Made by a program: the position numbers and the translations under genes
Assembly: GCA_021794235.1 (NCBI GenBank)
Contig: JAJYRE010000004.1
Location: 10,920 to 74,919, forward strand
Direction: 5' to 3'
DNA: 64,000 bases
Source of the DNA: Nanobdellota archaeon
GTDB lineage: Archaea > Nanobdellota > Nanobdellia > Parvarchaeales > Parvarchaeaceae
In this document: positions 3,557-64,000 of the stretch, piece by piece
Layout of the letters: every line of letters begins with the position of its first letter
How positions within the stretch are numbered: position 1 is the stretch's first letter
The notes under the pieces: model-generated
What the model saw: the letters and a program-made list of their open reading frames with translations, nothing else
Database searches by the model: none
What the model was told of the DNA's origin: nothing

Positions 3557-4375
3557 ATGAACAGGAAGGGAATCTCAGCCTTTTTAGGGATAATCATCTC
3601 ACTCGTAATACTCATACCAGTGGGCTTTATAGTATTCTTGATAATCTCGTCCGGTGCATCCAAGCTGGTGTCGTTCCAGCAGTCTGTGAACGCATATGTG
3701 TCAGCAACCCTCTCCGCGATGCAGACGGGGACGTCGGTGGTCGTACCGCCATCCGCACCGGATTTCGGCAGTACTACATTCCTAGCACAGTTCTACGGCG
3801 GCACGGCGTGTATGTCAATGATAGACCAGCTTTCGAGGAGCGCCATACTGGCGGAACCTACAAACCCGAGCAGCCTCACAAACAAATATTTCATATGCGT
3901 AGGAACGATGAATATGCAGCCGATCATATCGTACATGAGACAGTGGAACTATCTCCCGACATCGAGCGGATCCGCGTCTTTCCCCTATTGGTTTTCAAAT
4001 TACGGCCAGCTGAACTCGCAGTCCTACGGGCTGGCCCAGGGGGTATCCGGATCAAAAGACACGTTATCGTTCTTCACAAACTCCGCGAATCCGGCACAGA
4101 CTCTTGCCGGCTCCTGCGCAGATTTCTTTAACGCCACTACAACTTCGTACGGCTATGGCGTTCCATCGGCCTACATAACCGGTCTGAGCTGCGTCCCGCT
4201 GATGTACTCAAACAGTTCACTGTTCCTTAGCGTCGCTACATCCGGCTGCTCTTCAAGTAATGCGTGCAATTCCAATCCGGTGGCATTCCTATACGGCAAC
4301 CCGTCCTATGTTACAACACAGATATGCAGTTCTGGCGGTGGAAACTCATTAGTATGCCAGTTCTATCTTAAGTAA
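3557..4375 (+). CDS. Secreted Ser/Thr/Asn/Cys-rich protein with an archaeal type IV pilin-like N-terminus
   Basis: The N-terminus MNRKG|ISAFLGIIISLVILIPVGFIVFLI fits the archaeal pilin N-terminal pattern (basic residues, G, then xSxxxGxxxxxxI hydrophobic helix). The body is low in charged residues and has multiple N-x-S/T sequons. Confidence 0.55.
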   Translation: MNRKGISAFLGIIISLVILIPVGFIVFLIISSGASKLVSFQQSVNAYVSATLSAMQTGTSVVVPPSAPDFGSTTFLAQFYGGTACMSMIDQLSRSAILAEPTNPSSLTNKYFICVGTMNMQPIISYMRQWNYLPTSSGSASFPYWFSNYGQLNSQSYGLAQGVSGSKDTLSFFTNSANPAQTLAGSCADFFNATTTSYGYGVPSAYITGLSCVPLMYSNSSLFLSVATSGCSSSNACNSNPVAFLYGNPSYVTTQICSSGGGNSLVCQFYLK

Positions 4376-8450: not shown

Positions 8451-8468
8451 TTGACATACGCTTGTCAA
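8451..8468. promoter_or_regulatory. Inverted repeat TTGACA-N6-TGTCAA between an AT-rich TATA-like tract and the zinc-ribbon ORF
   Basis: ttgacatacgcttgtcaa read directly. It lies downstream of tatataattatttat (about 8427-8441) and upstream of the ATGs at 8480/8495. Confidence 0.25.
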
Positions 8469-8494
8469 AGACAAAAACAATGTCGCTGGTGTTT

Positions 8495-8773
8495 ATGGCA
8501 AAAGTAACAGTAACAATATGCGATGCGTGCAAGCAAAAGATAGCAACCAGGACATGTCCTGTGTGCGGTAAGGACCTATGCGAGGCCGACACGAAGTCTT
8601 TCTCAGTAGATGTCGGACTTAGATTCGGACAGAGGATGGAAATATACCACGGCAACATGTGCGAGGACGATTACAAAAAACTGGAGGGCAACCTAGGCGG
8701 TACTCTCGGTAAGATAAGCGAGAAGCTCAAGCAGGATATAGACGGAGTCGTAAAGGACAGCGTAGCGGTCTAG
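8495..8773 (+). CDS. Small zinc-ribbon protein (unknown function)
   Basis: MAKVTVTICDACKQKIATRTCPVCGKDLCE... contains CxxC...CxxC. The start is uncertain, with alternatives at 8480 (ATG) and 8462 (TTG). Confidence 0.45.
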   Translation: MAKVTVTICDACKQKIATRTCPVCGKDLCEADTKSFSVDVGLRFGQRMEIYHGNMCEDDYKKLEGNLGGTLGKISEKLKQDIDGVVKDSVAV

Positions 8774-12012: not shown

Positions 12013-12843
12013 ATGGAGTACAGACTTCCTGTCGATACAAGAAAAAATATCGTAAGACTATATAAATCGGGTTTTAGCATTCCAGAGCTATCTGATGCAT
12101 TTTGCTGTAGTAGAACTACCATTAACAGATATATAATAAGCTCGATGGGAGTTAGGGAAGCAAAGACTCCCGTGAAATTTAACCCGCGTGTTAAAAGTGA
12201 ATTAGGAGAATTTATCGGTGTATTTGCTGGAGACGGTAATGTAGATTTTGACCAATCAAAATATAGATACAGAATACGAATAACTTTGTCTAAAAACGAA
12301 ACCGTTTATTATGAGCGATTAAGCCATGTATCTAAAAATCTATTTGGTAAGAAGCCCTTCCTAGTAACACACAACAATCGTAACTGCATCGATCTTATTT
12401 TGGTTGGAAAGCCTATTTTGAAAATACTACAACATTATCTAGATTTTGATTTAAAAGATAAAACGCATACAATAGCACTTAAGGGAGACATTAACAATTA
12501 TAGTAAAGTCTTTCTTAGTAACTTTATAATGGGTCTAACTATTAGTGATGGCGGAGTTTATAACAGATACTACGGCAAAGGCTACTTGGAAAGAAAAATT
12601 GAGTTTACAAATACTTCCAGGAAATTGGCCGAACAGTATTACAAAATAGTAAATAATGTATTCGGTATAGACTCCCATTTCTATATACACCAACCATCAG
12701 TTTCTGGTCATAGTATAGCTTATAGAGTGGCTATCCTTTCTTACAGCAATATTTTAAAGTTCTATAACAGGATAGGTATGACAGAACCAAACAGAATGAG
12801 CGTCCTTGAGAGTATAGTCTCTAGTCAACATATTTACAAATAA
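12013..12843 (+). CDS. Free-standing double-motif LAGLIDADG-like endonuclease/DNA-binding protein with an N-terminal HTH
   Basis: 276 aa. Two LAGLIDADG-like motifs, ELGEFIGVFAGDGNV and FLSNFIMGLTISDGGV, lie about 100 aa apart. The N-terminal region resembles a resolvase-type HTH (RLYKSGFSIPELSDAFCCSRTTINRYI). The gene is visibly more AT-rich than its flanks. Confidence 0.55.
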   Translation: MEYRLPVDTRKNIVRLYKSGFSIPELSDAFCCSRTTINRYIISSMGVREAKTPVKFNPRVKSELGEFIGVFAGDGNVDFDQSKYRYRIRITLSKNETVYYERLSHVSKNLFGKKPFLVTHNNRNCIDLILVGKPILKILQHYLDFDLKDKTHTIALKGDINNYSKVFLSNFIMGLTISDGGVYNRYYGKGYLERKIEFTNTSRKLAEQYYKIVNNVFGIDSHFYIHQPSVSGHSIAYRVAILSYSNILKFYNRIGMTEPNRMSVLESIVSSQHIYK

Positions 12844-39922: not shown

Positions 39923-40435
39923 ATGTTCAAGAAAAAATGTCAATTCTGCGGCGAACCCGTACAGAAGGAGTGGAAATTCTGCCCACAGTGCGGCAGACCT
40001 CTGCACACACAGGGCCTTAACATAAGCGGGATAAATATAGACGTCACTAAAATGATAGGCCAGCTCATGCCACAGATCTTCAACAGCGTTGTCAACGGTA
40101 ACTTCTCCGATGCAGGCAGTCCAGCGTCCCCGAAGACCAGACAGGGCTCGAAATCCAGCAGGGAGACCGCCAGTAAGATGACAGGCGCGAGCAAGGTTGT
40201 AGAACCGGAGGATCTGGTATCCAATTACGGCGACACGATAGTACACTCGATATCATTGCCTGGTGTAAAGAACAAAACCGACATAGAAGTCAATAAGATG
40301 GAGAATTCTATAGAGGTAAGGGCAGTTTCGGGAAGCAAGCTGTACCTAAAGATACTTCAGAGAGAAAAGGGCCAGGGGCTTATCTCTGAGGAATTTGTAA
40401 ATGAAAATCTTGTTCTTGTTCTAAAGAAAGCGTAA
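39923..40435 (+). CDS. Zinc-ribbon protein fused to an Hsp20/alpha-crystallin-like domain
   Basis: N-terminus CQFCGEPVQKEWKFCPQCG. C-terminus VEPEDLVSNYGDTIVHSISLPGVKNKTDIEVNKMENSIEVRA....YLKIL resembles the ACD core (..LPGV.k.dI.v.v....l.I.a). Confidence 0.5.
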   Translation: MFKKKCQFCGEPVQKEWKFCPQCGRPLHTQGLNISGINIDVTKMIGQLMPQIFNSVVNGNFSDAGSPASPKTRQGSKSSRETASKMTGASKVVEPEDLVSNYGDTIVHSISLPGVKNKTDIEVNKMENSIEVRAVSGSKLYLKILQREKGQGLISEEFVNENLVLVLKKA

Positions 40436-42679: not shown

Positions 42680-43828
42680 ATGTTTGATTTTCTAAAGAAA
42701 AAGATAAAGGACTCTATAAACAAGATCCAGAAGAAACTCGAGAAAGAAGAGATAGAGGATGAACTGACTGCAGAGGAGAAGCAGGCGATCGTAGAGAATC
42801 CCCAGATTGTGCTTCGCGAGGAAAAAGAAGGGACGCCGACAGTGCAGGAAACGGAAACTGAAGAAAAGAAACCCGAACCAAGGGAAATAAAACCAAAGCA
42901 GCACCGCGCAAAAACACCGGAGCCGAAGGCGGAAGAAAAACACAAGGAGAAAGAGACAGGAAAGAAAACCACGAAGAGGCTGCTATCCCACAGGATAAAC
43001 GAGGCTGACATAGAGGGTATATACCAGGAAATAAAATCAGATCTTGTAGAAAACAACGTCGCACTTTCTGTTGTAGAATCGATACATGCGGACTTGAAGA
43101 AAAATCTGCTTGGTAAGGACGTGTCAATGCTCGCGATAAAGAAGGAGGTCGAGGAGGCCATAAAGAACAGCATAAGTGATATACTTTTGGAGTATCCAAT
43201 GGATGCTATGTTCGCGACCATCAAGACAGCAAAACCTTTCATAATACTCCTTGTGGGTGTTAATGGGGCAGGAAAGACAACGACCCTTGCAAAGCTCTCA
43301 CAGTTCTTTATAGGGAAAAAGTTCAGGGTAGTTGCCTCGGCGAGCGATACCTTCAGGGCAGCATCGATAGAGCAACTGCAGATACACATGGACAAGCTCG
43401 GAGTAGATCTTGTAAAACACACTTACGGGGCTGATCCGGCAGCCGTAGCATTCGATGCGATAAAACACGCCAAGAATGTGGCCGCTGACGTGGTTCTTAT
43501 AGATACGGCGGGAAGGAGCGACATAAACAAGAACCTCATAGAAGAGCTAAAGAAAGTCAAGAGAGTAAGCAAGCCCAACCTGACCATATTTGTAGGCGAC
43601 GCCCTTACCGGCAACGATGCGGTAAAGCAGGCAGAGATATTTGACAGGGAAGTAGGGATAGATGCTAGTATAATATCAAAAGCCGACGTAGATAAGAAGG
43701 GCGGGGCTGTACTTTCGATATCCTATGTCACGAAGAAACCAATCATGTTTTTGGGTACTGGACAGGACTACCCAGATCTTATACCTTTCAATAAAGAACG
43801 AACGGCTGAGTTTTTACTCAAGGATTAG
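42680..43828 (+). CDS. ftsY: Signal recognition particle receptor FtsY
   Basis: 382 aa. Charged N-terminal region, then the NG domain: LLVGVNGAGKTTTLAKL, DTFRAA, DTAGR, SKADVD.KGG. Confidence 0.9.
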   Translation: MFDFLKKKIKDSINKIQKKLEKEEIEDELTAEEKQAIVENPQIVLREEKEGTPTVQETETEEKKPEPREIKPKQHRAKTPEPKAEEKHKEKETGKKTTKRLLSHRINEADIEGIYQEIKSDLVENNVALSVVESIHADLKKNLLGKDVSMLAIKKEVEEAIKNSISDILLEYPMDAMFATIKTAKPFIILLVGVNGAGKTTTLAKLSQFFIGKKFRVVASASDTFRAASIEQLQIHMDKLGVDLVKHTYGADPAAVAFDAIKHAKNVAADVVLIDTAGRSDINKNLIEELKKVKRVSKPNLTIFVGDALTGNDAVKQAEIFDREVGIDASIISKADVDKKGGAVLSISYVTKKPIMFLGTGQDYPDLIPFNKERTAEFLLKD

Positions 43829-46796
43829 GATATAGGAATGCTATCGATGTAAGCGCACCGTTGTTACTGTTATTGCTATAGTCATATCCGTTCCCATCCA
43901 GAGGGAGCCACGCTATTAGCTTTTCAAGATGAACAGGTTCCGCTCCTATCCCTGCATTGTATAAGTGGTTTATATCTAGAAGTGAGAGTGCTGTATCATA
44001 CATCTGCACGTTCGCCGTCTGTCCGTTCATTTGGCTACTTCCAAGTTCAGTCGCAGGAGTAGCGTACGGTGCTGGCTGGTTGAGGGTATAGGTAGAGTTA
44101 CTGCACTTTAAATCTGCGCATGATGCTATCCAGGCATTTCCAGGCGAGTTGTACTTGAGGATACCAGTAACCAATACCCATTTGTTGTACGGGACGTAAA
44201 CGTTCGGTGTCACTCTATTGTTCGCGCCAGTGCCGCATGACTGATTCCATTCTACCAAGTTTATGAAGTAACCAGTGGAATTATCCGGAAATTGCTGTAA
44301 TCCCGAAGTACAGCCTTGATTCTCCTGGAGCAGGTCCCTGCAAGGGAAACCCCCATTGCAGTTTCCATACGCATGCTTTAAATTCACCCAAACACTTAGC
44401 GTGTAGCTGTCACCCCCATTCCATATCTTGGCCGTGCTGGCAGTACCCGGTACCGCAATATTGCTTGCATTCGTGAAGTTAGCTACAGAATACTGATATC
44501 CATAGCTGCTTACAGTCGATCCACCTGATACCTGCCCTATGTTTATAGACGGCATCACATCGTTTGGAGGATATGCCCTTACTCTCATCCATTGCACAGT
44601 CATAGTGTTGCTAGTGCTCGATGCATATACCCCAGTAGAGATAAATACAGAAGACGGGAGTGCAAGGTCTCCAGAGGAGGCATTAAAACTCAAATAATTT
44701 TTATAGTAATACTGTGCCGATGAAGACGTCCAAGTCTGTCCGTTCACCCCAGGTACAACTATCTGTAAGTTTATATTCTGTGTTCCACTCATCCCGCCAG
44801 ACATCGACCCTTCTCCTATACTTCCCGACCATTCATTAAAGTCGTATCCGTCCGAAGACGCGAGGTTACCATTCTGCTGCGCTATGCCGCCGCTCTCGGC
44901 CCCTCCAGATTGAGATGTTATATAAGCTTCGGATATTACAGGCGGAGTGTATCCCGTTCCCCATATTATACCTACGTTGTTGGCGCTGCCCGTGGAGAAA
45001 GTTATTCCGTTATTAACAGTTATCGACGCTCCGGACGGTACCTGTGTAGAGAATCCGAACGGCACGCTGCTCCCGGAGAAATTCCAATAGTTTATGAATA
45101 TCTTCCCCCCGTTGTCGTATTGTCCGTACGCTGGTGACAGCTGTGGAGCCTCTCCCACATTTATTCCGTTGAACAAGTTTATGGACGGGTCGGCAAATCC
45201 TATGTACGCATTTATAGTCGTGTTTGCGGGTATGCCATTACCCAGTTTCAGCCAATAAACTGCAGTCGAAGAGGACGTTCCCGACTCAAGCCATGAAGGT
45301 ATCACACTGCCGTTGGCATAGAAGAATTCAACGTTTTGCAGGTTCGAAGCTTCGTACATCTGGTATTTGGTTGCGTTTATGACAACCTGTTGCTGGAATG
45401 GTGCCGGTGTCGCAGTCGGCTGGTCATTTGTGATTGATATCGGTGCATAATATCCTATATATTGCGGCAGAGTCGGCGGGAGAAGCGCGCTGGGCATCAC
45501 GCCATTCGGAGGGTAGGCCGCTGTGGCCATCCAGTCCACGTAATCGTTCTCCTGCACGCTTAAGCTTGCTGTTGCCAGCCCAAAGTAGAGATTTCCCGTG
45601 CTTGGAATATAGTTTTGATAACTTATACTATTGGTTCCTGTAGTCGTCTGAATACTCCCTGTTACATCAGCAGCGCCGGGGACATATGCGAGCTGATAAG
45701 CGTCCCAGATTGGGCCACCGCCTTCTACTGTGCTGCTTCCTCCAAAGTTTCCGCTCTGGAGCCATGTTATCGACACAGTGGTTCCATTACCCTGCACATA
45801 GTTTATTCCCGCCGGTGAAGTTGACATGGAAGCCGCTCCGAGAGCTGCTATCGATCCCAGATAGGTACTACTTCCTATAGCCCCGGACAAAACAAGCATG
45901 GCCTGATTTGGCAGGTTAATATTCCTGGCGTAGTCAAATGCGCGTGCTCCTGTACCTGTACTGTGTATCGCCGTAGTGCTGCCGTAAGGACAGAAGCTAG
46001 TGTAACAGTTTATAGTAACTCTTGAAATCGAATAACCTGATTGGTTTAGGAAATCAGAAAGTGGATAAGCCGCGTTGAAATAGTTCTCAAATACATTCGC
46101 ACCGTTGTCGTATTTTCCGTAAACAGCAGATAGCTGTGGGGCCTCTCCCACTGTTACACCATTAAAGAGGTTTGTACTCTTGCCTGCAAATCCCATGTAT
46201 ATAGTTATAGATGAATGCGCGGGTATGCTCACGCCGAGCTTCAGCCAGTAAATAGACTTAGACGATGAGTTTCCTATCTCAAGCCATGAAGGTATCACAC
46301 TGCCGTTGGCATAGAAGAATTCAACGTTTTGCAGGTTCGAAGCTTCGTACTGCTGGTATCTTTTAGAATCTATCATTATTTTCTGCCGGTATGGATCCGC
46401 TGTAGCGACTGACTGCGTGTTTTGTAGAGTTATCGGAACGGTACTTATCTGCGTCAGAATGTTCTGCGTCTGTGGTGGCGTAGAATTAAGAACGTTTAGA
46501 TTATTCGCTATCGCGCTATAAGTAAAATTATAGTTAACCAGATAATTTTTAATCATATTGGTTATCGTAGAGTTTAAAACGTTAAAGTTTGAGGAATTTA
46601 CATTCAGTGAATTCAGCTGCGAATATAGACTTAGGATACTGGAATATCCGTTTCTCAGAACCGTGAAAGAAGTCGTAAGTGTCTGGCCGTTTTTGTTGCT
46701 GCTGAGATTGTAATACTCCACACTAAGCACCGCCAGAATGGTAATTATCAGCATAACCAGAAAGAACATCGTTATCAGCTGGCCTCTCGAGTTCAT
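43818..46796 (-). CDS. 992-aa surface protein: pilin-like signal, two DUF2341-like modules, LamG/ConA-like C-terminal region
   Basis: N-terminus MNSRG|QLITMFFLVMLIITILAVL (G-1/Q+1). The duplicated ~330-aa module contains YEASNLQNVEFFYANGSVIPSWLE..YWLKL...I.A......Y.GFA....NLFNG..VGEAPQLS..YG.YDNG, which resembles DUF2341 as I recall it. The C-terminal part resembles LamG-type lectin folds. Many sequons. Confidence 0.65.
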   Translation of the reverse strand: MNSRGQLITMFFLVMLIITILAVLSVEYYNLSSNKNGQTLTTSFTVLRNGYSSILSLYSQLNSLNVNSSNFNVLNSTITNMIKNYLVNYNFTYSAIANNLNVLNSTPPQTQNILTQISTVPITLQNTQSVATADPYRQKIMIDSKRYQQYEASNLQNVEFFYANGSVIPSWLEIGNSSSKSIYWLKLGVSIPAHSSITIYMGFAGKSTNLFNGVTVGEAPQLSAVYGKYDNGANVFENYFNAAYPLSDFLNQSGYSISRVTINCYTSFCPYGSTTAIHSTGTGARAFDYARNINLPNQAMLVLSGAIGSSTYLGSIAALGAASMSTSPAGINYVQGNGTTVSITWLQSGNFGGSSTVEGGGPIWDAYQLAYVPGAADVTGSIQTTTGTNSISYQNYIPSTGNLYFGLATASLSVQENDYVDWMATAAYPPNGVMPSALLPPTLPQYIGYYAPISITNDQPTATPAPFQQQVVINATKYQMYEASNLQNVEFFYANGSVIPSWLESGTSSSTAVYWLKLGNGIPANTTINAYIGFADPSINLFNGINVGEAPQLSPAYGQYDNGGKIFINYWNFSGSSVPFGFSTQVPSGASITVNNGITFSTGSANNVGIIWGTGYTPPVISEAYITSQSGGAESGGIAQQNGNLASSDGYDFNEWSGSIGEGSMSGGMSGTQNINLQIVVPGVNGQTWTSSSAQYYYKNYLSFNASSGDLALPSSVFISTGVYASSTSNTMTVQWMRVRAYPPNDVMPSINIGQVSGGSTVSSYGYQYSVANFTNASNIAVPGTASTAKIWNGGDSYTLSVWVNLKHAYGNCNGGFPCRDLLQENQGCTSGLQQFPDNSTGYFINLVEWNQSCGTGANNRVTPNVYVPYNKWVLVTGILKYNSPGNAWIASCADLKCSNSTYTLNQPAPYATPATELGSSQMNGQTANVQMYDTALSLLDINHLYNAGIGAEPVHLEKLIAWLPLDGNGYDYSNNSNNGALTSIAFLYPNP
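45285..45357. repeat. 73-nt perfect intragenic repeat, copy 1
   Basis: ctcaagccatgaaggtatcacactgccgttggcatagaagaattcaacgttttgcaggttcgaagcttcgtac is identical to 46278-46350. Confidence 0.95.
46278..46350. repeat. 73-nt perfect intragenic repeat, copy 2
   Basis: Identical to 45285-45357. Both copies encode YEASNLQNVEFFYANGSVIPSWLE on the minus strand. Confidence 0.95.
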
Positions 46797-56469: not shown

Positions 56470-56505
56470 AAATATTTATATACTTTAAGGTAATAAATAT
56501 CTAAT

Positions 56506-57714
56506 ATGGCAGACAATAGGGAGAAAATACCTGCAGTCGTTATATTGATGATAATGCTGATAAGTTCGGTGGTCATCTATATATTACTGGTACCTCCGCC
56601 CGTCGCCTATAAGCTCCTGGGGATAAACAATACTACTACCTCGCCCGGTTTTACCGTCCCCGCCGGAGCTTTTTTCAAGAACATTAGCACGTACATAGGA
56701 GGATATCCCAATCCGCAGCTGCAGAACTACCCTATAGGAACATTCGGGGTTTCGTACACGCAGAAAAACTACACTGTCTTCAGCAAAAAATCACTGGCCG
56801 TATCATCTTCATTATTCGGTTCGTCCTCTTACAACCTGTTCTTCAACAATACGCCCTCCGATACGTACTATCTTCTGATGAACGTCGGATCCGTTTCCGG
56901 ATCTCCAAAACTCGCGGTATCGGTTAACGGCAGCCAGATATACAGCGTTCTACCGACAACCAATGAGAGCATAGCAATAAAGCTTCCGTCAGTAGACAGC
57001 GAAAAGGCACTGTTATCGGTGACTAATTACCTAAACGGATTTGCGTTTTCACAGTCATTCACACTCGACAACGTTAAACTCGTAAAGCAGATTGGAAACA
57101 GCTCAAATATGACGAGCGCTGTCAAAGTTATGACATTCAGCGGAATAGGAGACTACTATCTTAATTATACACCCCTCGGATCCGGTAATATGAGCGTTTA
57201 CATAAACGGAATCGAGGTGTCCAGCATAAGCGGCACCAACACAAAAACAACCAGCGTAACCATCCCGCCTAGTGTGATAGCGAGTGCGGTGCGCGCTGCC
57301 GGTTCGTCTCAGGATTCCACAGTGCTTCCACTGACTTTCAACGTCAGTTTCGAACCTGGAAAGCAGGCCTCCTATGAGATAGCAAACGCGGGAGTATCAT
57401 ACCAAATACCGAGCATAGCAGGCAACAAAATATCATTATATTACAATGTAAGTTCAACCGCCAGCAACTATGCGATGGTCCTAGATGTTGCTAGTATAAT
57501 CAACAGCGGAAATCTTACCATCACTATAAACCCCTCTGGTTTTTCGACCGAGATACCCGCCGACAAATTGGCAGTGGGTCAGAACGCAGTAATCCTATCG
57601 CCTTCGGATCTGGGTGGAAACAGTCAGAATGGAGCATTTACGGGAACCGTGACGCTATCGTCAAACGGGCTTATAATTCCAGAATCAATAACCATCAAGC
57701 CAGTCAGCTCTTAG
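56506..57714 (+). CDS. Surface cluster protein 1: N-terminal anchor helix plus three internal repeats, sequon-rich
   Basis: 402 aa. N-terminus MADNREKIPAVVILMIMLISSVVIYILLV. Three modules recur around YYLLMNVGSVSGSPKLAVSVNG / YYLNYTPLGSGNMSVYINGI / YAMVLDVASIINSGNLTITIN. Many N-x-S/T sequons. Confidence 0.5.
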   Translation: MADNREKIPAVVILMIMLISSVVIYILLVPPPVAYKLLGINNTTTSPGFTVPAGAFFKNISTYIGGYPNPQLQNYPIGTFGVSYTQKNYTVFSKKSLAVSSSLFGSSSYNLFFNNTPSDTYYLLMNVGSVSGSPKLAVSVNGSQIYSVLPTTNESIAIKLPSVDSEKALLSVTNYLNGFAFSQSFTLDNVKLVKQIGNSSNMTSAVKVMTFSGIGDYYLNYTPLGSGNMSVYINGIEVSSISGTNTKTTSVTIPPSVIASAVRAAGSSQDSTVLPLTFNVSFEPGKQASYEIANAGVSYQIPSIAGNKISLYYNVSSTASNYAMVLDVASIINSGNLTITINPSGFSTEIPADKLAVGQNAVILSPSDLGGNSQNGAFTGTVTLSSNGLIIPESITIKPVSS

Positions 57715-57752
57715 CTATAATGTATATAAGTCGGGCTAAATTATAATCAAAT

Positions 57753-59273
57753 ATGAGCGATTCAAACGGTGGAAATCAGGGCCCTCAGCAGCAACCATCG
57801 GGCCAGATTAAGCCGACTTCTAAAGATAGATTGGGGAAGCTCTTCAATAAACGCGGCAAATATGTATGTCCTACGTGCGGCCAGGCTTTCAAAAAGAAAT
57901 CAGATCTCCTTGACCACAGACTGACAGTTCACGGAACTGACAAATCTGCGGCAGCTCTCCTATACATGAACAAAGGTTATCTAAAAAAGCATCCAGAGCT
58001 TAACCCCGCCTACAATGGCAGCAACTTCATGATGGAGCAGCAGTACAAGAAAATGATGAAAAGAAGGCTGTTTGATCCGGACAAAACAGTGTACACAGCA
58101 AAGAAATACTCAGTGGTAATTGCTGCGTTAGCCATTATAATAATACCAATACTGATATACTGGTTTGTTTATGGGCAGAACAGCGCTTCTGCACAGTACT
58201 TTAATACTTACTATGGTGCGTCCTTTAAACCAGTAACGGGGTTAATATCATCCATAGAGAACTCTCTTCTTACGGGTATAGAGGTGATACAGAACCCCTA
58301 CAATATAGGGGGGACCGCGCCACCACCAACGATAAACACCACACAAACATTCAAGCAATTCCTTGTTTTGACTGCAGTACCCAATCAGGTTATAACCATG
58401 ACCAATAACCCGCAGTTGTCAACGATTTTATATTCAATAAAGGACAATGCTAACGTGCCGCTCGGTTCCGGAACCCCTAACAACGTGCTGGTATCACTTT
58501 CATGCGGCAGCACGGTTTCGCAGCAGTCTGCCAAAGTGTGCCAGGATATGCTATCGAACTTTACTTCACCAGTACATGCTTCATCACCTCCTGTCATAAC
58601 AAATTTGCCCCTGATAAGCGAGATACTTCCCAGTGAGACTATAGACAACTCCACCTCGTTCTATCTCAACTGTCCGTTAGCAAAGACAACTTTCCCTACG
58701 GGTGCGACCGTGTTGGGCAACTTTACAATTAAAAATTATACCGCTGCTACAATTCTGCCAATCGAATTTGTATCGTACAACTTTAACCAGAAACTGCTAC
58801 AGGCTTCGCAACCGGTGCTTCCTTCGGTTCCCTCGGTGAACTTCGTCACACCCGGTCCGATACAGGTGGAGCTCAGTGTGCCCGTTCAGCAACCAATTTC
58901 GACCCAGGTAGAATCCGTACCGATAAACGTAAAGATAAATGATATAGGGACAGGTTCGCCGAACATATCCACTCTTGTTCTTTTCGTAAGCAAACAGTTC
59001 TATCCAAGCAACCCAACGAATGGGCAGTGGACGTGCACCAACTCATTCCCATTTAACAGGGGGGGATTCCAGTTCCCAGGAAGCGGCTATTGGGCGTGTA
59101 CTCTACCGGCTTCTCAGCTAAAGGGTACAACCTCATTCATATTTTCTCTGCCGCATGTGGCCACGCTCGGCGGGCTGCACTTCAATACTATGTCGGTGAT
59201 AGCAGGAGTGGTTTACAATTATAACGAACTGTTGAATATACCATTCATAATCGATAACGAGACCTGTACGTGA
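57753..59273 (+). CDS. Surface cluster protein 2: cytoplasmic C2H2 zinc finger, single TM, large sequon-rich ectodomain
   Basis: 506 aa. Residues 37-60 are YVCPTCGQAFKKKSDLLDHRLTVH (C-x2-C-x12-H-x4-H with the conserved F and L). The TM is VVIAALAIIIIPILIYWFVY at about residues 120-140, preceded by KKMMKRR..KK. The rest is Ser/Thr/Pro/Asn rich. Confidence 0.6.
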   Translation: MSDSNGGNQGPQQQPSGQIKPTSKDRLGKLFNKRGKYVCPTCGQAFKKKSDLLDHRLTVHGTDKSAAALLYMNKGYLKKHPELNPAYNGSNFMMEQQYKKMMKRRLFDPDKTVYTAKKYSVVIAALAIIIIPILIYWFVYGQNSASAQYFNTYYGASFKPVTGLISSIENSLLTGIEVIQNPYNIGGTAPPPTINTTQTFKQFLVLTAVPNQVITMTNNPQLSTILYSIKDNANVPLGSGTPNNVLVSLSCGSTVSQQSAKVCQDMLSNFTSPVHASSPPVITNLPLISEILPSETIDNSTSFYLNCPLAKTTFPTGATVLGNFTIKNYTAATILPIEFVSYNFNQKLLQASQPVLPSVPSVNFVTPGPIQVELSVPVQQPISTQVESVPINVKINDIGTGSPNISTLVLFVSKQFYPSNPTNGQWTCTNSFPFNRGGFQFPGSGYWACTLPASQLKGTTSFIFSLPHVATLGGLHFNTMSVIAGVVYNYNELLNIPFIIDNETCT

Positions 59274-59278
59274 TTTAT

Positions 59279-60211
59279 ATGAACATGAAAAACTTTAACA
59301 ATAAAGGAGCTGGCACATTCTCCGTCCTGGTGATAATAGGATTTATAGTAGTGATATTCTTCATGTGGCCATCTATAGGTCCATACTTAGGGATAACTCC
59401 TATCAAAACTACTACAGTTCCTCCTACAGAGGGGGTTGTTGCAAGCGGTATAACATATCCGTCCAGCATTACGCCCCAGTCAACATTCGGCGTAAGTTTC
59501 CTGCTTCAGAACAATCTCAATGGAAAGGTAGCTTCGGATATACACTTATGTCTGGATAATATGGGGTTGTTTACACTATCCAGCGGAAATAGGTGCCTTA
59601 CAGTGCCTTCACTTTTCGCAGGAGGCGTGCTGTCAGAATCGTACACACTCAATTCTCCCCCCGTGTCGGCTTATGGGAACATACCCTATGTGCAGACTCT
59701 GGGATATTACATAAACTTCTCATACGCATCCAGTTCTGTGCAGAGCCTCCAGTTTGTATCATCAAACCCTTCGGGAACCATCCCCTTCCCGCAGACAAAT
59801 TCCTTTGATACTACAGCAGGGCCCCTGAGTATAACCAGTTCCGCGCAGCAGCCGGTAGTCTACGGGCAGGACGCACAGCTTAATCTGAACCTGAAGAACG
59901 TAGGAAACGGCATAGTCATTGGACTTGTGAACATAGTCATCTCCATGAACAGCTCGCTGATAAATATGACATCTGCAAGCAACTATGGATTCGTTCCGAC
60001 AACCTACGCCAACGGCACAGTGGCGTTCAGCGCTTCTAGGTATCTCGGTCAGACCGGTCTTTCTCTGATTCTACCTGTAGTGCTTAATTCAAAAGAAGAG
60101 TCAAAGCTTTCCACATCAGGCGTACCGTACATAACATCCAACATAAACTTCCACATATCATACGCCTACGAAGAGGACGGGTTTTTCGACATAAAGCTGC
60201 TTACGCAGTAA
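59279..60211 (+). CDS. Surface cluster protein 3: pilin-like signal plus two beta-rich domains
   Basis: About 310 aa. N-terminus MNMKNFNNKG|AGTFSVLVIIGFIVVIFF. Contains ..AQLNLNLKNVGNG.., reminiscent of CARDB/Ig-like strands. The track ORF starts at a GTG at 59270, overlapping the previous stop. Confidence 0.5.
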   Translation: MNMKNFNNKGAGTFSVLVIIGFIVVIFFMWPSIGPYLGITPIKTTTVPPTEGVVASGITYPSSITPQSTFGVSFLLQNNLNGKVASDIHLCLDNMGLFTLSSGNRCLTVPSLFAGGVLSESYTLNSPPVSAYGNIPYVQTLGYYINFSYASSSVQSLQFVSSNPSGTIPFPQTNSFDTTAGPLSITSSAQQPVVYGQDAQLNLNLKNVGNGIVIGLVNIVISMNSSLINMTSASNYGFVPTTYANGTVAFSASRYLGQTGLSLILPVVLNSKEESKLSTSGVPYITSNINFHISYAYEEDGFFDIKLLTQ

Positions 60212-60252: not shown

Positions 60253-61191
60253 ATGACTTATTTTGGTAGCAGAGGCGCCAACAACACCACGATATTCGGT
60301 GTGATAGCGATCCTGGTAATCATTGTAGTAGTCTATACTATGAATTCGGGAGCACTGAATCTTTTCGGACCTTCCGGGCTCAGTGCCAATACATTCAGCG
60401 TCTCGTCAAATTTGTCTTCCAGCAGCATACTTCAGGGGTATTCAGGCCAGCTTTTCTTCAGTTTCTTAAATCCGTACAATGAATCCATAGACGCCAGAAT
60501 CAACCTTACCACCGTAGATTCAAGTTTCATAAACATACCAGACCCTTCAAGAGCTGTCCTGATGCCCTCCGCAATGAAGTCTTCATCCTCCATCGTCTTT
60601 AATGTGTCCTGCATCGGCAGCGGTCAGTCATCGTATGCTCTGTCGGCTGAAATCCCAAACTTTTGGCAGAACCTGACAACCTCGGTAGTTACGTACCCGT
60701 ATAGGACCAGCTCATCACAGGTTCCGAAGGAGGTTTACAACAATCCCAATGCTGGATTCCTTAAAGTATCAGCGCAGCCTCTTTTGATAGAGACGCAGAC
60801 TTCCACAGTGCCACTTCAGCAGTCCATGAATATTGTGTTTTCTTCGACTACTTTCAATGGCTATCAGAGCGGACCATACACTGCAATATCTTTAGGATCT
60901 CCAAATAACTACATAAGCGAAATTCTGGTGTCAATAGACAACTCCTCTTCAGGAGGGATAAAGTCTGCTTTTGTTTATTACAACGGGAACTCATATCCTC
61001 TTACCCAAGTGTCCCCTGGCATTCTAGGCGCTGAATTGAAGGATGCGTACGTTCCGCTGATAGAGCCTTCCATACCTATAATAATAACCGCTGTAAATTC
61101 ACAGACGGCTTCACAGGAAATAGTAAATATAGCCATTAAATACAATTACTATTTCTCATATACAGGTCCTTCGGAGATAGTGTGTCAGTAA
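60253..61191 (+). CDS. Surface cluster protein 4: pilin-like signal plus two beta-rich domains
   Basis: 312 aa. N-terminus MTYFGSRG|ANNTTIFGVIAILVIIVVV. Size and motif layout parallel protein 3. Confidence 0.5.
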   Translation: MTYFGSRGANNTTIFGVIAILVIIVVVYTMNSGALNLFGPSGLSANTFSVSSNLSSSSILQGYSGQLFFSFLNPYNESIDARINLTTVDSSFINIPDPSRAVLMPSAMKSSSSIVFNVSCIGSGQSSYALSAEIPNFWQNLTTSVVTYPYRTSSSQVPKEVYNNPNAGFLKVSAQPLLIETQTSTVPLQQSMNIVFSSTTFNGYQSGPYTAISLGSPNNYISEILVSIDNSSSGGIKSAFVYYNGNSYPLTQVSPGILGAELKDAYVPLIEPSIPIIITAVNSQTASQEIVNIAIKYNYYFSYTGPSEIVCQ

Positions 61192-61192
61192 T

Positions 61193-62065
61193 ATGGTAAG
61201 AGCACAGACTGGAATCGCGTTTTTGGTGTTGATAGTGGTCCTCGTGGCTGTATCTTTGTACTTATACCAGGGAGGATATCTAAGCGGATTATTTCCAGCG
61301 ACCCACGTACCGCACCAGAACTCTTACGTTCCGCTGACCGTCAATGTGACATCTCCACACGATCTGTCATCCCTTTATCCCAACCAGCAATTTCAGGTTA
61401 TATCAACCATTTCGAACAGCAGAAATACTCCAATGACAGCAACTATAGTTCCTTTCGGCTGCTCTTTTCTGCCTACTACTCAAAGAACTGTAACAATACC
61501 ACAAAACTCTCCATCTTCCATACAGTGGACATTTTCAAGCAGCAGCGCAACAAGCTGCGCAATAACGTTCAAAGTCTGTTTTAACGATACCGCATACACA
61601 GATTACCCTGTAACATTTGTGAATTACCAGTTTACCGGCACTCCGCCGACTTCGCCGCCAACCTCATCATCAGGAGTACCTATATCAATATACTTACAGG
61701 GATTGAATTCCACAATAACCGCACCGCCATCCACAGTGAATTCAACGGTATATGTCAATTCGCTTCAGCTATCCAGCTTCGGAATCGCTACCGGTTTGAA
61801 GTGGGTCAACATCAAAATAGAAAACGACCAGGGTTATTTTACCCTCTATAGCAATCAGATATCCAGAACAAGCAGTATAAATCTTAGTGCCAACAGATAC
61901 GAACTCGCTTTCCAGAACGGTAACCTCCTGTCACCTTTCCCATTCCTTCTAGCTATACCACCGGTGACAAACCCGCAGGGTTATACTTCCAATGTAGCGA
62001 TTAATGTCAGCACCGCGTATACGTACTGCGTGTCTTCAAACAGTCTGCCAGTCGGCATAAAGTAA
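61193..62065 (+). CDS. Surface cluster protein 5: pilin-like signal plus two beta-rich domains
   Basis: 290 aa. N-terminus MVRA|QTGIAFLVLIVVLVAVSLYLY. Starts 1 nt after the previous stop. Confidence 0.5.
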   Translation: MVRAQTGIAFLVLIVVLVAVSLYLYQGGYLSGLFPATHVPHQNSYVPLTVNVTSPHDLSSLYPNQQFQVISTISNSRNTPMTATIVPFGCSFLPTTQRTVTIPQNSPSSIQWTFSSSSATSCAITFKVCFNDTAYTDYPVTFVNYQFTGTPPTSPPTSSSGVPISIYLQGLNSTITAPPSTVNSTVYVNSLQLSSFGIATGLKWVNIKIENDQGYFTLYSNQISRTSSINLSANRYELAFQNGNLLSPFPFLLAIPPVTNPQGYTSNVAINVSTAYTYCVSSNSLPVGIK

Positions 62066-62815
62066 TCAGCTGTTTTTTCCGAACAGCGTATCAATAGCCC
62101 CGGATTCGTAATCACTTACTTCACCGGGTATAATCAGGCATACAGGGGGATTATGGACCTCATTTCCGGCCTTTTCTACAAAATTTATTACTTGATCCTC
62201 TCCGCCTAGTCTGGACGCAAAAAGAGTTTTTTCCCAGTTTATCACGCTTTGACCCCTCTTCCTCTCTATCCCTTTTAGTATATCCACAGCAGCCTGCACC
62301 CCTAGAAAGTTCTTTTCATCCCTTGCTTCCAGTAACACAAGTGTATGCATCCCGTTTTCCGTATTCTGTTTTATGGCATCGAAGAAGCTCTCCGGCCTGT
62401 AATTTTCAGAATATATCGGCATACTTGTCGTGCGTCCGAATTTGTATATCGAAAATCCGGTTTCTCCTATCGCTGAAAATATGCTTGAAGCGTGTATAAT
62501 CCTATAATCTATGCCCCTTACGACGGCTTCTGTTACCAGAGACATATGCGTCGTAGCCGCCAAAGGGTCTCCCGGTACGAGCAGACACACCGTTTTATTC
62601 TGCGAGGCTGCTACAAGCGCGTCATTCTCCACACCTTCTCTTCCCAGAATAGTTATTCTCTTTCCGGTGATTTCTTCCAGCCAATTCAACTGCGTGATAT
62701 CATTCGGATTTGTGTACCTCTCCAGATAGACTTCATCAGCTTTTTTTATGATTTCTACGGCTCTGAACGGCAAATCATTTAAATAATACAAGCCAGTACC
62801 AATTAGATATAACAT
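62066..62815 (-). CDS. dphB: Diphthine synthase
   Basis: 249 aa. MLYLIGTGLYYLNDLPFRAVEIIKKADEVYLERYT... and ..LVPGDPLAATTH. Confidence 0.9.
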   Translation of the reverse strand: MLYLIGTGLYYLNDLPFRAVEIIKKADEVYLERYTNPNDITQLNWLEEITGKRITILGREGVENDALVAASQNKTVCLLVPGDPLAATTHMSLVTEAVVRGIDYRIIHASSIFSAIGETGFSIYKFGRTTSMPIYSENYRPESFFDAIKQNTENGMHTLVLLEARDEKNFLGVQAAVDILKGIERKRGQSVINWEKTLFASRLGGEDQVINFVEKAGNEVHNPPVCLIIPGEVSDYESGAIDTLFGKNS

Positions 62816-62818
62816 ATT

Positions 62819-63658
62819 ATGGTATACTCAATCGACTATATTATATTTATTTTCGCCCTTCTTGTTCTTGGGCTGTCATCGGCGTTCGATATAAAGAGCA
62901 GGGAGGTTCCGCAATTTCTGCTTTACATCCTGATATTCGGGTCGGTCCTGCTTTGCGTGTTCAAGTTTATATTTACCGGCTCTCTGTCATCCATAGAATA
63001 CCTTCCTGTCTCGCTCGCACTGCTCTTCGGGTTCTCATATCTCATGTACATATCCGGCCAGTGGGCGGGAGGTGACGTGCAGATCATGCTAGGTCTGAGT
63101 TTTCTTTTCACTTCCGCAAATATCAGTTCTAACATGTCATTCGTGTCTCTTTTCATAAACATAATGATAGCCGGCGGCGTATACGGTCTTTTCGGCACGC
63201 TAATCATGGGTATAATAAAGTACAAAAGACTGAAAAAGTACCTAAAGTTTTATGATGTGCCGATTGTGGTTTTAGGCGCTATAGCGATCGCATCCTCCTT
63301 CATCCTGCTACCGCTACCTCTGAATCTATTCATACCTGCCATACTTTTCCTTCTGGTCTCCATGCGTTACATGTACTTGATTTCAACCACTGTGGTATTC
63401 GTAAAGACTCCATCGGCAAAGCTGGAGGAAGGTGATTGGATAGCGGAGGAGATACGAGATCATGAGGGGAAGCTAGTAGTAAGACCAAAGGCTACGGGGC
63501 TGTCTAAAAGGGACATAGAGAAGATTAAATCGAATAACATCAGGGAAGTGTTGGTGAAGATAGGCCTTCCGTTTATACCAGGAATATTTTTGGGAGTCCT
63601 TATAACAGTCCTTCTCGGGAATCCTCTTTTGTCTATATTTCTAAGTAGTCTGCCCTAA
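62819..63658 (+). CDS. A24-family prepilin/preflagellin peptidase (PibD/FlaK-like) with an archaeal C-terminal domain
   Basis: 279 aa, polytopic. First catalytic Asp context SSAFDIKSREVP (D24), second in GQWAGGDVQIMLG (GxGD-like). C-terminal soluble insert plus a final TM, as in FlaK-type enzymes. Confidence 0.75.
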   Translation: MVYSIDYIIFIFALLVLGLSSAFDIKSREVPQFLLYILIFGSVLLCVFKFIFTGSLSSIEYLPVSLALLFGFSYLMYISGQWAGGDVQIMLGLSFLFTSANISSNMSFVSLFINIMIAGGVYGLFGTLIMGIIKYKRLKKYLKFYDVPIVVLGAIAIASSFILLPLPLNLFIPAILFLLVSMRYMYLISTTVVFVKTPSAKLEEGDWIAEEIRDHEGKLVVRPKATGLSKRDIEKIKSNNIREVLVKIGLPFIPGIFLGVLITVLLGNPLLSIFLSSLP

Positions 63659-64000
63659 GATTCTTCAAAGAGTGACTCATCTCTTTCAAGTTCATAATCT
63701 TCATCAGGGTCTTCGTTTATCTCATCCTTTAGTGAAAACTCTTTTCTACGCATATACTATTTACTATATAGTAATAGATATCCTTTTAAATATTTAAACG
63801 CTTCTCTGGGCGTCTATAGCTTATATATGAACCACGCCATGTGCCAGTTATAAAAAGGCCGTGAACTTCCACCAACGACATAAATATATCGGTATAAGTC
63901 TAAAAATCCCATCACTCAGTTTACTGTCGGATTAGGCAAATAATCCTGGATAAAATAATCTTTACCATGCACTTTACCCGATAAAGAACCAAAATCCTCC

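Follow-up and report, generated by a model that had tools for sequence, protein, structure and literature searches.

A classical C2H2 zinc finger on the predicted cytoplasmic tail of a surface-cluster membrane protein of Parvarchaeota

What does a eukaryote-style C2H2 zinc finger do on an archaeal membrane protein whose larger part appears to lie outside the cell? The question is raised by g2 (57753..59273, + strand), the gene for a 506-residue bitopic membrane protein in a 64,000-nucleotide stretch of a Nanobdellota archaeon genome (contig JAJYRE010000004.1, positions 10,920 to 74,919; this whole stretch is called the window, and coordinates refer to it unless another locus is named). The archaeon is a tiny acidophile of the Parvarchaeota, of ARMAN type. 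A preliminary description of g2, made from the sequence alone, saw in it the logic of the bacterial ToxR/CadC-type transmembrane regulators and offered, as an alternative, a protein-interaction or zinc-structural module that docks a surface assembly to a cytoplasmic partner. Our analysis favors a reading close to the alternative. With a probability of about one half, g2 is the bitopic part of a phylum-specific, pilin-like surface apparatus, in which docking of a cytoplasmic partner falls to a basic tail and the finger serves as an accessory module for binding, not as a ToxR-like DNA-reading head.

C2H2 fingers are scarce but known in archaea, with 278 UniProt entries in 2013 (PMC3541406). Automatic annotation has given proteins of the g2 family the name "zinc finger C2H2-type domain protein" from the ARMAN-5 genome (EFD93087.1) onward, family member P0004 among them. 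We found no paper on this family or on membrane-tethered archaeal C2H2 proteins, the 2016 survey of type IV pili by Makarova mentions neither ARMAN nor zinc fingers, and the combination of a classical C2H2 finger with one transmembrane helix and a pilin-cluster ectodomain was not found described. The protein is best filed as kin to bitopic envelope proteins that carry a zinc module in the cytoplasm, and to archaeal single C2H2 fingers. DPANN archaea such as ARMAN live attached to hosts, and their envelope proteins are almost all uncharacterised.

Architecture and topology of g2

The open reading frame (ORF) of g2 is backed by 30 family members, and the exact protein of the window is also found in public assemblies. 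A later start codon was considered, since homologue P0001 starts at residue 72, and was rejected because the finger-containing upstream region is kept in 17/17 other species genomes and the TATA-like box upstream of the ATG at 57753 is conserved.

The finger spans residues 37–60 (YVCPTCGQAFKKKSDLLDHRLTVH; 57861..57932, + strand), with the ligands C39-x2-C42-x12-H55-x4-H60 and the core residues Y37, F46, and L52. Across the six reading frames of the window, the strict pattern [FY]xCx2Cx3Fx5Lx2Hx3-5H is found a single time, against 1.6e-7 matches expected by chance from the amino-acid composition of the window's ORFs, and the looser C-x2-C-x12-H-x3-5-H pattern has no second occurrence there. A phmmer search of the tail against PDB sequences gave matches confined to residues 36–61, all of them classical fingers, including PRDM9 (1e-20, summed over repeats), the 1MEY consensus finger (1.4e-8), the single-finger entry 2COT (1.8e-5), and ZNF435. 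No other domain was detected in the 118-residue tail by this search or by Pfam. The Pfam zf-C2H2 profile (PF00096), named as a check in the preliminary description, matched g2 at E=3.5e-5, though its 24.5 bits fall 0.7 bit short of the gathering score of 25.2; the ARMAN-5-type homologue P0092 carries precomputed matches to both PF00096 and PF13894. A full-length AlphaFold2 (AF2) model from 12 sequences has a mean predicted local distance difference test (pLDDT) score of 52 and is usable for secondary structure only. It places strands at residues 37–38 and 45–46 and a helix at 49–59, which is the expected strand-strand-helix order, at a pLDDT of only 55–68. Judged by its spacing, its aromatic/Leu core and these matches, the segment is a genuine classical C2H2 finger, as the preliminary description held. 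It has basic flanks (KDRLGKLFNKRGK...) and a KKK run within its helix.

The sole hydrophobic segment of g2, at residues ~119–140 (58107..58172, + strand; Kyte–Doolittle hydropathy 2.95), is rendered as a helix by AF2. The 15 residues on its N-terminal side include five Lys/Arg, whereas the 15 on its C-terminal side include none, and the same asymmetry holds in all 30/30 family members, with two to six before the helix and none or one after. Sequons and cysteine pairs lie on the C-terminal side, apart from one of the eight sequons, N88, which falls within the tail. Given the charge pattern, the N/S/T/P richness, and the invariant sequons and cysteines described below, the protein fits an N-in, C-out topology with a cytoplasmic finger and an extracellular, glycosylated, and disulfide-bonded C-terminal domain. 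This prediction agrees with the membrane-tethered, N-in protein of the preliminary description, for which an extracellular finger would have been fatal.

The ectodomain, equally large and rich in Ser/Thr/Pro/Asn and sequons in that description, comprises 366 residues, with 145 N/S/T/P (40%), seven sequons, and six cysteines; four of the sequons and all six cysteines are invariant across 12 homologues. An AF2 model of the transmembrane segment plus ectodomain, from a 22-sequence alignment, has a mean pLDDT of 79.9, rising to 85–94 in the beta regions. It shows, in order, the transmembrane helix, a long low-confidence helix (construct residues 28–63, pLDDT 42–55) that would form an extracellular stalk at residues ~141–194 (58173..58334, + strand), and two beta-sandwich domains at residues ~195–352 and ~362–502 (58335..59270, + strand). 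Foldseek searches against PDB and BFVD returned generic tandem Ig-like matches at a TM-score of about 0.2, namely integrin alpha thigh/calf legs, transglutaminase barrels, complement MG domains, the CfaB (CFA/I) and BcpA Gram-positive pilins, and MSCRAMMs; no family could be assigned from them, and none of the matches was sensor-like. A profile of the ectodomain searched against PDB sequences gave only spurious matches to transmembrane helices and fusion partners (E>=0.017). A remote relationship was found next door, as hhalign aligned the g2 ectodomain with that of the following gene, g3, over ~126 columns (probability 77%, E=2e-5), which argues that g2 is a relative of its neighbors and not a distinct sensor. 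In the model, then, the ectodomain is structural in character, a generic tandem beta-sandwich.

History of the finger in the g2 family

An exhaustive phmmer search plus a profile search yielded the 30 members of the g2 family. They are restricted to Candidatus Parvarchaeota/Parvarchaeum (ARMAN-4, ARMAN-5) and related metagenome-assembled genomes (MAGs), some of which are labelled Nanoarchaeota by their depositors. All 30/30 share the architecture of a cytoplasmic tail of 50–180 residues, one transmembrane helix, and the conserved ectodomain. The finger is less constant. The tail contains C-x2-C-x12-H in 18/30 members, while the other 12/30 have no cysteine in the tail at all and are hence fingerless, so that the fusion for which the preliminary description suggested a survey of relatives is common in the family without being universal. 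Three fingerless members that were looked up, P0020, P0025, and P0095, sit in the slot DUF357-g1-g2-g3 and are therefore orthologues of g2. In a neighbor-joining tree of the ectodomains the finger-bearing proteins form one clade nested among fingerless ones, which indicates a single gain. ARMAN-5-type P0092 has two complete fingers, and the number across the family is thus zero, one, or two. Read from these sequences, the finger entered the family a single time, underwent one later duplication, and had its last ligand altered several times.

That last ligand is the variable one. C39, C42, F46, L52, and H55 are invariant in 18/18 finger-bearing members and in 18/18 loci of species-representative genomes, found with alignment A1, which recovers the finger clade only. 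The final histidine is canonical in 10/18 finger-bearing members, P0092 among them, and the conservation of Cys and His residues on which the preliminary description had staked its case therefore extends to both cysteines and the first histidine and stops at the second. In the remaining 8/18 the fourth zinc ligand is shifted or lost: five read HQMHDE (H-x2-H, with Glu at H+5), one reads HQVNDE, and in two of ARMAN-4 type the finger has a Pro-containing end that offers no evident fourth ligand (such ends replace the last His in P0093, P0094, and ARMAN-4). The corresponding count among the species genomes is 7/18, with a canonical finger in 11/18. In AFV1p06, an archaeal-virus protein, a Glu at H+5 likewise replaces the fourth His, with zinc and DNA binding retained (PMC3541406). 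By this analogy the variants with Glu at H+5 are probably still zinc sites, and the Pro-containing variants may not be.

These changes could mean that the finger is a relic, either decaying or of structural use only, without a ligand of its own, as the loss or shift of the fourth ligand in 8/18 members, the Pro-containing ends, and the 12 fingerless relatives would suggest. Yet the five invariant positions hold throughout, members without the last His mostly retain the Glu of the AFV1p06-type zinc-binding arrangement (PMC3541406), the finger was duplicated in ARMAN-5, and its conservation exceeds that of its flanks. Measured against the window protein, identity reaches 41% in the finger, compared with 22% in the N-terminal segment, 9% in the linker, 33% in the juxtamembrane segment, and 49% in the ectodomain. 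As the best-conserved element within the tail, the finger is under selection where it is present, and a relic is very unlikely. With one gain, one duplication, and partial loss of the fourth ligand, the family offers a clean natural experiment on the finger.

The same history bears on the regulator proposed in the preliminary description, in which the ectodomain would sense a cue and the tethered finger would bind promoter DNA controlling the cluster or other genes. Like bacterial ToxR, CadC, and TcpP, g2 is bitopic and N-in, with a nucleic-acid-type domain inside and the larger of its domains outside. Proteins of the GAGA-factor type bind DNA through a single finger flanked by basic residues, and the flanks of the g2 finger resemble theirs. 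In addition, g1 and g2 each have conserved promoter-like boxes, and AFV1p06 demonstrates DNA binding by a lone C2H2 finger of an archaeal virus (PMC3541406). ToxR, CadC, and TcpP, however, carry an OmpR-type winged helix family-wide, whereas g2 has no winged helix-turn-helix match (Pfam/NCBIfam, E<=1) and its finger, gained only once, is absent from 12/30 members, including the three in the same gene slot. The helix positions that usually read bases (-1/+2/+3/+6) vary between orthologues (K,S,D,D; T,T,A,Y; T,N,A,G; N,L,E,S), ARMAN-4 is among the members whose last ligand has shifted or disappeared, and the finger lies only ~30 residues from the membrane in most of its clade. The outside domain, finally, is a structural beta-sandwich pair in a pilin-like cluster, a paralogue-like relative of g3 without a sensor-like fold and without homology to ToxR, CadC, or TcpP. 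Fingerless orthologues, varying helix positions, ligand loss, and a generic ectodomain together make such a regulator unlikely. Because the conserved core exists without the finger and the finger was gained once, the finger looks like an accessory and not the heart of a signaling system.

The surface cluster and the docking of the tail

The preliminary description placed g2 second in a block of surface-protein genes, and comparison of loci from the 18 species-representative genomes and from metagenome contigs bears this out. The order DUF357-g1-g2-g3-g4-g5-dph5(-)-A24 is identical in every locus that reaches far enough, and two deep-branching genomes retain DUF357-g1-g2-g3 only. Directly upstream of g2, always, is g1 (56506..57714, + strand), which encodes a 402-residue N-terminally anchored surface protein with 14 sequons. 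Downstream, g3 (59270..60211, + strand; 313 residues), g4 (60253..61191, + strand; 312 residues), and g5 (61193..62065, + strand; 290 residues) have prepilin-like N-termini of the class III signal type, [KR][GAS]↓[AQ] plus a hydrophobic stretch, conserved in orthologues: NNKG↓AGTFSVLVIIGF in g3 (NNKG↓AGTF..., with K12 invariant), GSRG↓ANNTTIFGVIAILV in g4 (GSRG↓ANNT...), and MVRA↓QTGIAFLVLIVV in g5 (MVRA↓QTGIAF...). A diphthine synthase gene (dph5-like, TP_methylase; 62066-62815, - strand) is wedged between g5 and a gene for a class III signal (prepilin) peptidase of family A24 (62819..63658, + strand), an arrangement kept in every locus reaching there. The peptidase matches PF01478 at 31.6 bits (cut-off 26.5) and, weakly, NCBIfam FlaK_Arch; both of its catalytic Asp motifs (FDIKSREVP, GGDVQ) are retained, and its position is conserved in every locus extending that far.

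None of g1, g3, g4, and g5 matched a Pfam or NCBIfam family, and the g3 family is limited to Parvarchaeota-type MAGs, its members all carrying the name "hypothetical." A published description of DPANN pilins as undetectable "dark matter" is in keeping with this (PMC6393860). In other genomes larger proteins with leaders of the Q+1/E+5 type adjoin the cluster. Invariant in the Parvarchaeum-type genomes sampled and adjoining a prepilin peptidase gene, the cluster is a good candidate for a core surface or contact apparatus. g2 is its sole member with a sizeable cytoplasmic part, and as the only one reaching the cytoplasm it provides a natural handle on what the apparatus couples to.

This neighborhood also invites the thought that g2 might belong among the prepilins and have a leader of giant size, in which case A24 would cut at the cytoplasmic face of the transmembrane helix, the ectodomain would mature, and the 118-residue leader would be released together with the finger. 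The N-in/C-out orientation is that of prepilins, the cluster is prepilin-like, and by AF2 and synteny g2 has a transmembrane helix plus beta-sandwich head near the A24 gene. In locus L005 the g3 orthologue reads KKHS↓AAEG (others KKG↓A), resembling the g2 flank AKKHS↓L, and the flank of P0025 and P0095 is RRKG↓LGF. The flank in the window, AKKYS↓VVIA, nevertheless lacks K/R at -2 and departs from the [KR][GAS] rule, and in several family members the basic pair is not followed by a small residue. Known class III leaders are about 3–30 residues long, far from the 45–180 that would be needed here. The short charged leader ending in [KR]-[GAS] before a helix, found in g3, g4, and g5, is missing from g2, and we regard a giant leader as highly improbable.

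What remains constant in the g2 tail is its membrane-proximal part and its charge. The basic juxtamembrane segment (residues 96–118, QYKKMMKRRLFDPDKTVYTAKK; 58038..58106, + strand), delimited from an anchored listing of 31 tails and from regional identity, contains the motif [LF]-F-D-x-D...[VI]-R-x-A-K-K, which the finger clade shares with several fingerless members (P0015, P0018, P0016, P0017, and P0035), as it does a helical, charged segment ahead of the motif. Tails are strongly basic with or without a finger (net charge +14 in the window protein, and K/R minus D/E up to 20 across the family).

We hypothesize that g2 would be an N-in, C-out glycoprotein of a Parvarchaeota-specific surface cluster, g1-g5, adjoining a class III signal peptidase gene. 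Its conserved parts would be a basic, mostly disordered tail with the juxtamembrane motif, the transmembrane helix, the stalk, and two disulfide-bonded, glycosylated beta-sandwiches, and it would join an extracellular pilin-like assembly to something intracellular. The architecture, topology signals, phyletic pattern, synteny, and fold class are shown by the analysis, while the docking and the kind of partner are what we infer. Into this tail the finger would have been inserted once, in the ancestor of the Parvarchaeum clade, to supply a further surface, stabilised by zinc, to which an anionic or protein partner could bind. Thus, the docking module offered as second choice in the preliminary description fits the data better than its ToxR/CadC comparison.

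Known systems provide partial parallels. PilN, PilO, and GspL of bacteria and FlaF and FlaG of archaea combine a short or medium cytoplasmic part with one transmembrane helix and a domain outside; their genes neighbor pilin-like genes, and the proteins connect an external assembly to cytoplasmic parts. g2 resembles them in layout and gene setting, but has no ATPase or platform gene adjacent, and neither the PDB profile search nor Foldseek matched its ectodomain to type IV filament accessory proteins in sequence or fold. To our knowledge, none of these accessory proteins carries a C2H2 finger. The layout is shared, too, by zf-HC2 anti-sigma factors of the RsiW/ChrR type, bacterial and sigma-factor dependent, in which an N-terminal cytoplasmic zinc module that binds protein and not DNA precedes one transmembrane helix and an extracytoplasmic domain. 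Their zinc motif, H-x3-C-x2-C, differs from the C2H2 finger of g2, and the Pfam scan of g2 gave no zf-HC2-type match. CdpC, the haloarchaeal membrane anchor of FtsZ1, sets a precedent for an adaptor role, as its membrane-associated zinc fingers bind proteins and, as in g2, are combined with a long disordered linker (bioRxiv 10.64898/2026.07.16.738847). It differs in having two zinc ribbons (C3H and C4) and an amphipathic helix, in place of the C2H2 finger and transmembrane helix of g2, and no ectodomain, and the two sequences are unrelated (bioRxiv 10.64898/2026.07.16.738847). AFV1p06 and related archaeal and viral single C2H2 fingers share with g2 a lone classical finger with disordered basic flanks and, with the HQMHDE and HQVNDE variants of the family, a Glu at H+5 that can serve as fourth ligand; these proteins are small and soluble, whereas the g2 finger is membrane-tethered and fused to the 366-residue ectodomain (PMC3541406).

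Several observations weigh against an accessory docking module. First, the partner of the g2 tail is hypothetical, and the full-length AF2 model is poor (mean pLDDT 52). Second, the pilin-like label rests on N-terminal motifs and the adjacent peptidase, since no pilus ATPase or platform gene was seen among the larger ORFs of the window or in the flanks inspected, the Pfam scan having covered part of the window's ORFs. Finally, most characterised classical C2H2 fingers bind nucleic acids, and the g2 finger has basic flanks like those of single-finger DNA binders. The only characterised archaeal-virus example, AFV1p06, binds DNA (PMC3541406).

The last of these points leads to another possibility, that the basic tail and finger act as a non-specific nucleic-acid arm and hold DNA or RNA at the base of the apparatus, either to receive pilus-imported DNA or to tether the nucleoid. 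The strongly basic tails found family-wide, the classical nucleic-acid-binding fold contributed by the finger, the modest specificity with which AFV1p06 binds DNA (PMC3541406), and recognition residues variable enough for non-specific binding would all suit it. Against it, the flanks inspected contain no DNA-translocation genes (ComEC-like or ATPase), basic tails are expected anyway from the positive-inside rule and lipid head-group contacts, and the reading is purely inferential. We consider it improbable, while the C2H2 prior and the basic flanks keep non-specific binding alive. A bolder form, which we hold to be quite doubtful, makes the tail a functional nucleic-acid-binding arm of a DPANN pilin-like envelope machine, either a membrane-tethered factor that the neighboring class III peptidase frees into the cytoplasm or the cytoplasmic end at which a surface apparatus for DNA uptake or contact receives DNA; if true, each would connect the archaeal cell surface to a C2H2 finger of eukaryotic type in a new way. 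Should the finger bind DNA, archaea would have in g2 their first described membrane-tethered C2H2 protein. Should it bind protein, as the docking module would have it, it would join the few archaeal zinc fingers that serve as membrane-proximal adaptors.

The extreme N-terminus of the tail shows a further feature. In 15/18 species loci the g2 orthologue starts with M-x-L-K-[IL]-N-[RK]-K-G-Q (L003 10001-10030; the g2 starts of L009-L025), the same start as the class-III-type leader of a 1380-residue neighbor (MRINRKGQQVVEALMTYGW; L003 16118-16180). It is followed in g2 by a Pro-rich segment and not by a hydrophobic helix, and g2 of the window (MSDSNGGNQG) does not have it. This start could be a pilin-leader relic or a motif recognised in the cytoplasm.

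Promoter-like elements and other features of the window

Read by eye, a TATA-like box (57720-57730) and a second A/T element (57739-57749) lie 4–33 nucleotides ahead of the g2 start (57720..57749, + strand), and the boxes are conserved with locus L001, where a 275-nucleotide gap precedes g2. A transcription factor B recognition element (BRE)/TATA-like element (aaatatttatata; 56470..56482, + strand), likewise read by eye, stands before g1 and is conserved in six loci. A/T-rich BRE/TATA-like boxes are thus found ~25–35 nucleotides before the ATG of both g1 and g2 and are kept in related loci. Their placement suggests leaderless or short-leader transcripts and separate putative promoters for g1 and g2, and with a conserved TATA-like box to itself, g2 may be transcribed at least in part independently of g1.

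In L001 (6354-9726; also in L002 and L008), which belongs to the closest sister lineage of the window, two extra genes lie between g1 and g2 and encode a 914-residue protein with the leader NDA↓QSAVEYL and a 205-residue membrane protein. A kinship of g2 with the 914-residue, class-III-like protein, hinted at by BLASTP (E=0.006), was not confirmed by hhalign (probability 0.1%). At the other end of the cluster, a 32-residue acidic ORF (MRRKEFSLKDEINEDPDEDYELERDESLFEES; 63655-63753, - strand) overlaps the stop codon of the A24 gene; an ORF matching it in size and position is called in L001, L003, and L006, and the Pfam scan gave no match for it.

Class-III-signal-like N-termini also occur elsewhere in the window, on a 992-residue protein with a DUF2341 domain (MNSRG↓QLITMFF; 43818-46796, - strand) and on a 272-residue protein (MNRKG↓ISAFLG; 3557-4375, + strand). 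Judging from these sequences, many large surface proteins of this genome seem to be anchored or processed by the prepilin route. A further ORF (12013-12843, + strand) combines an N-terminal helix-turn-helix with LAGLIDADG_3 and is homing-endonuclease-like and apparently free-standing. Two small proteins (39923-40435 and 8462-8773, both + strand) have N-terminal zinc ribbons (C-x2-C...C-x2-C), which leaves the C2H2 finger of g2 as the odd one out among the zinc proteins of the window.

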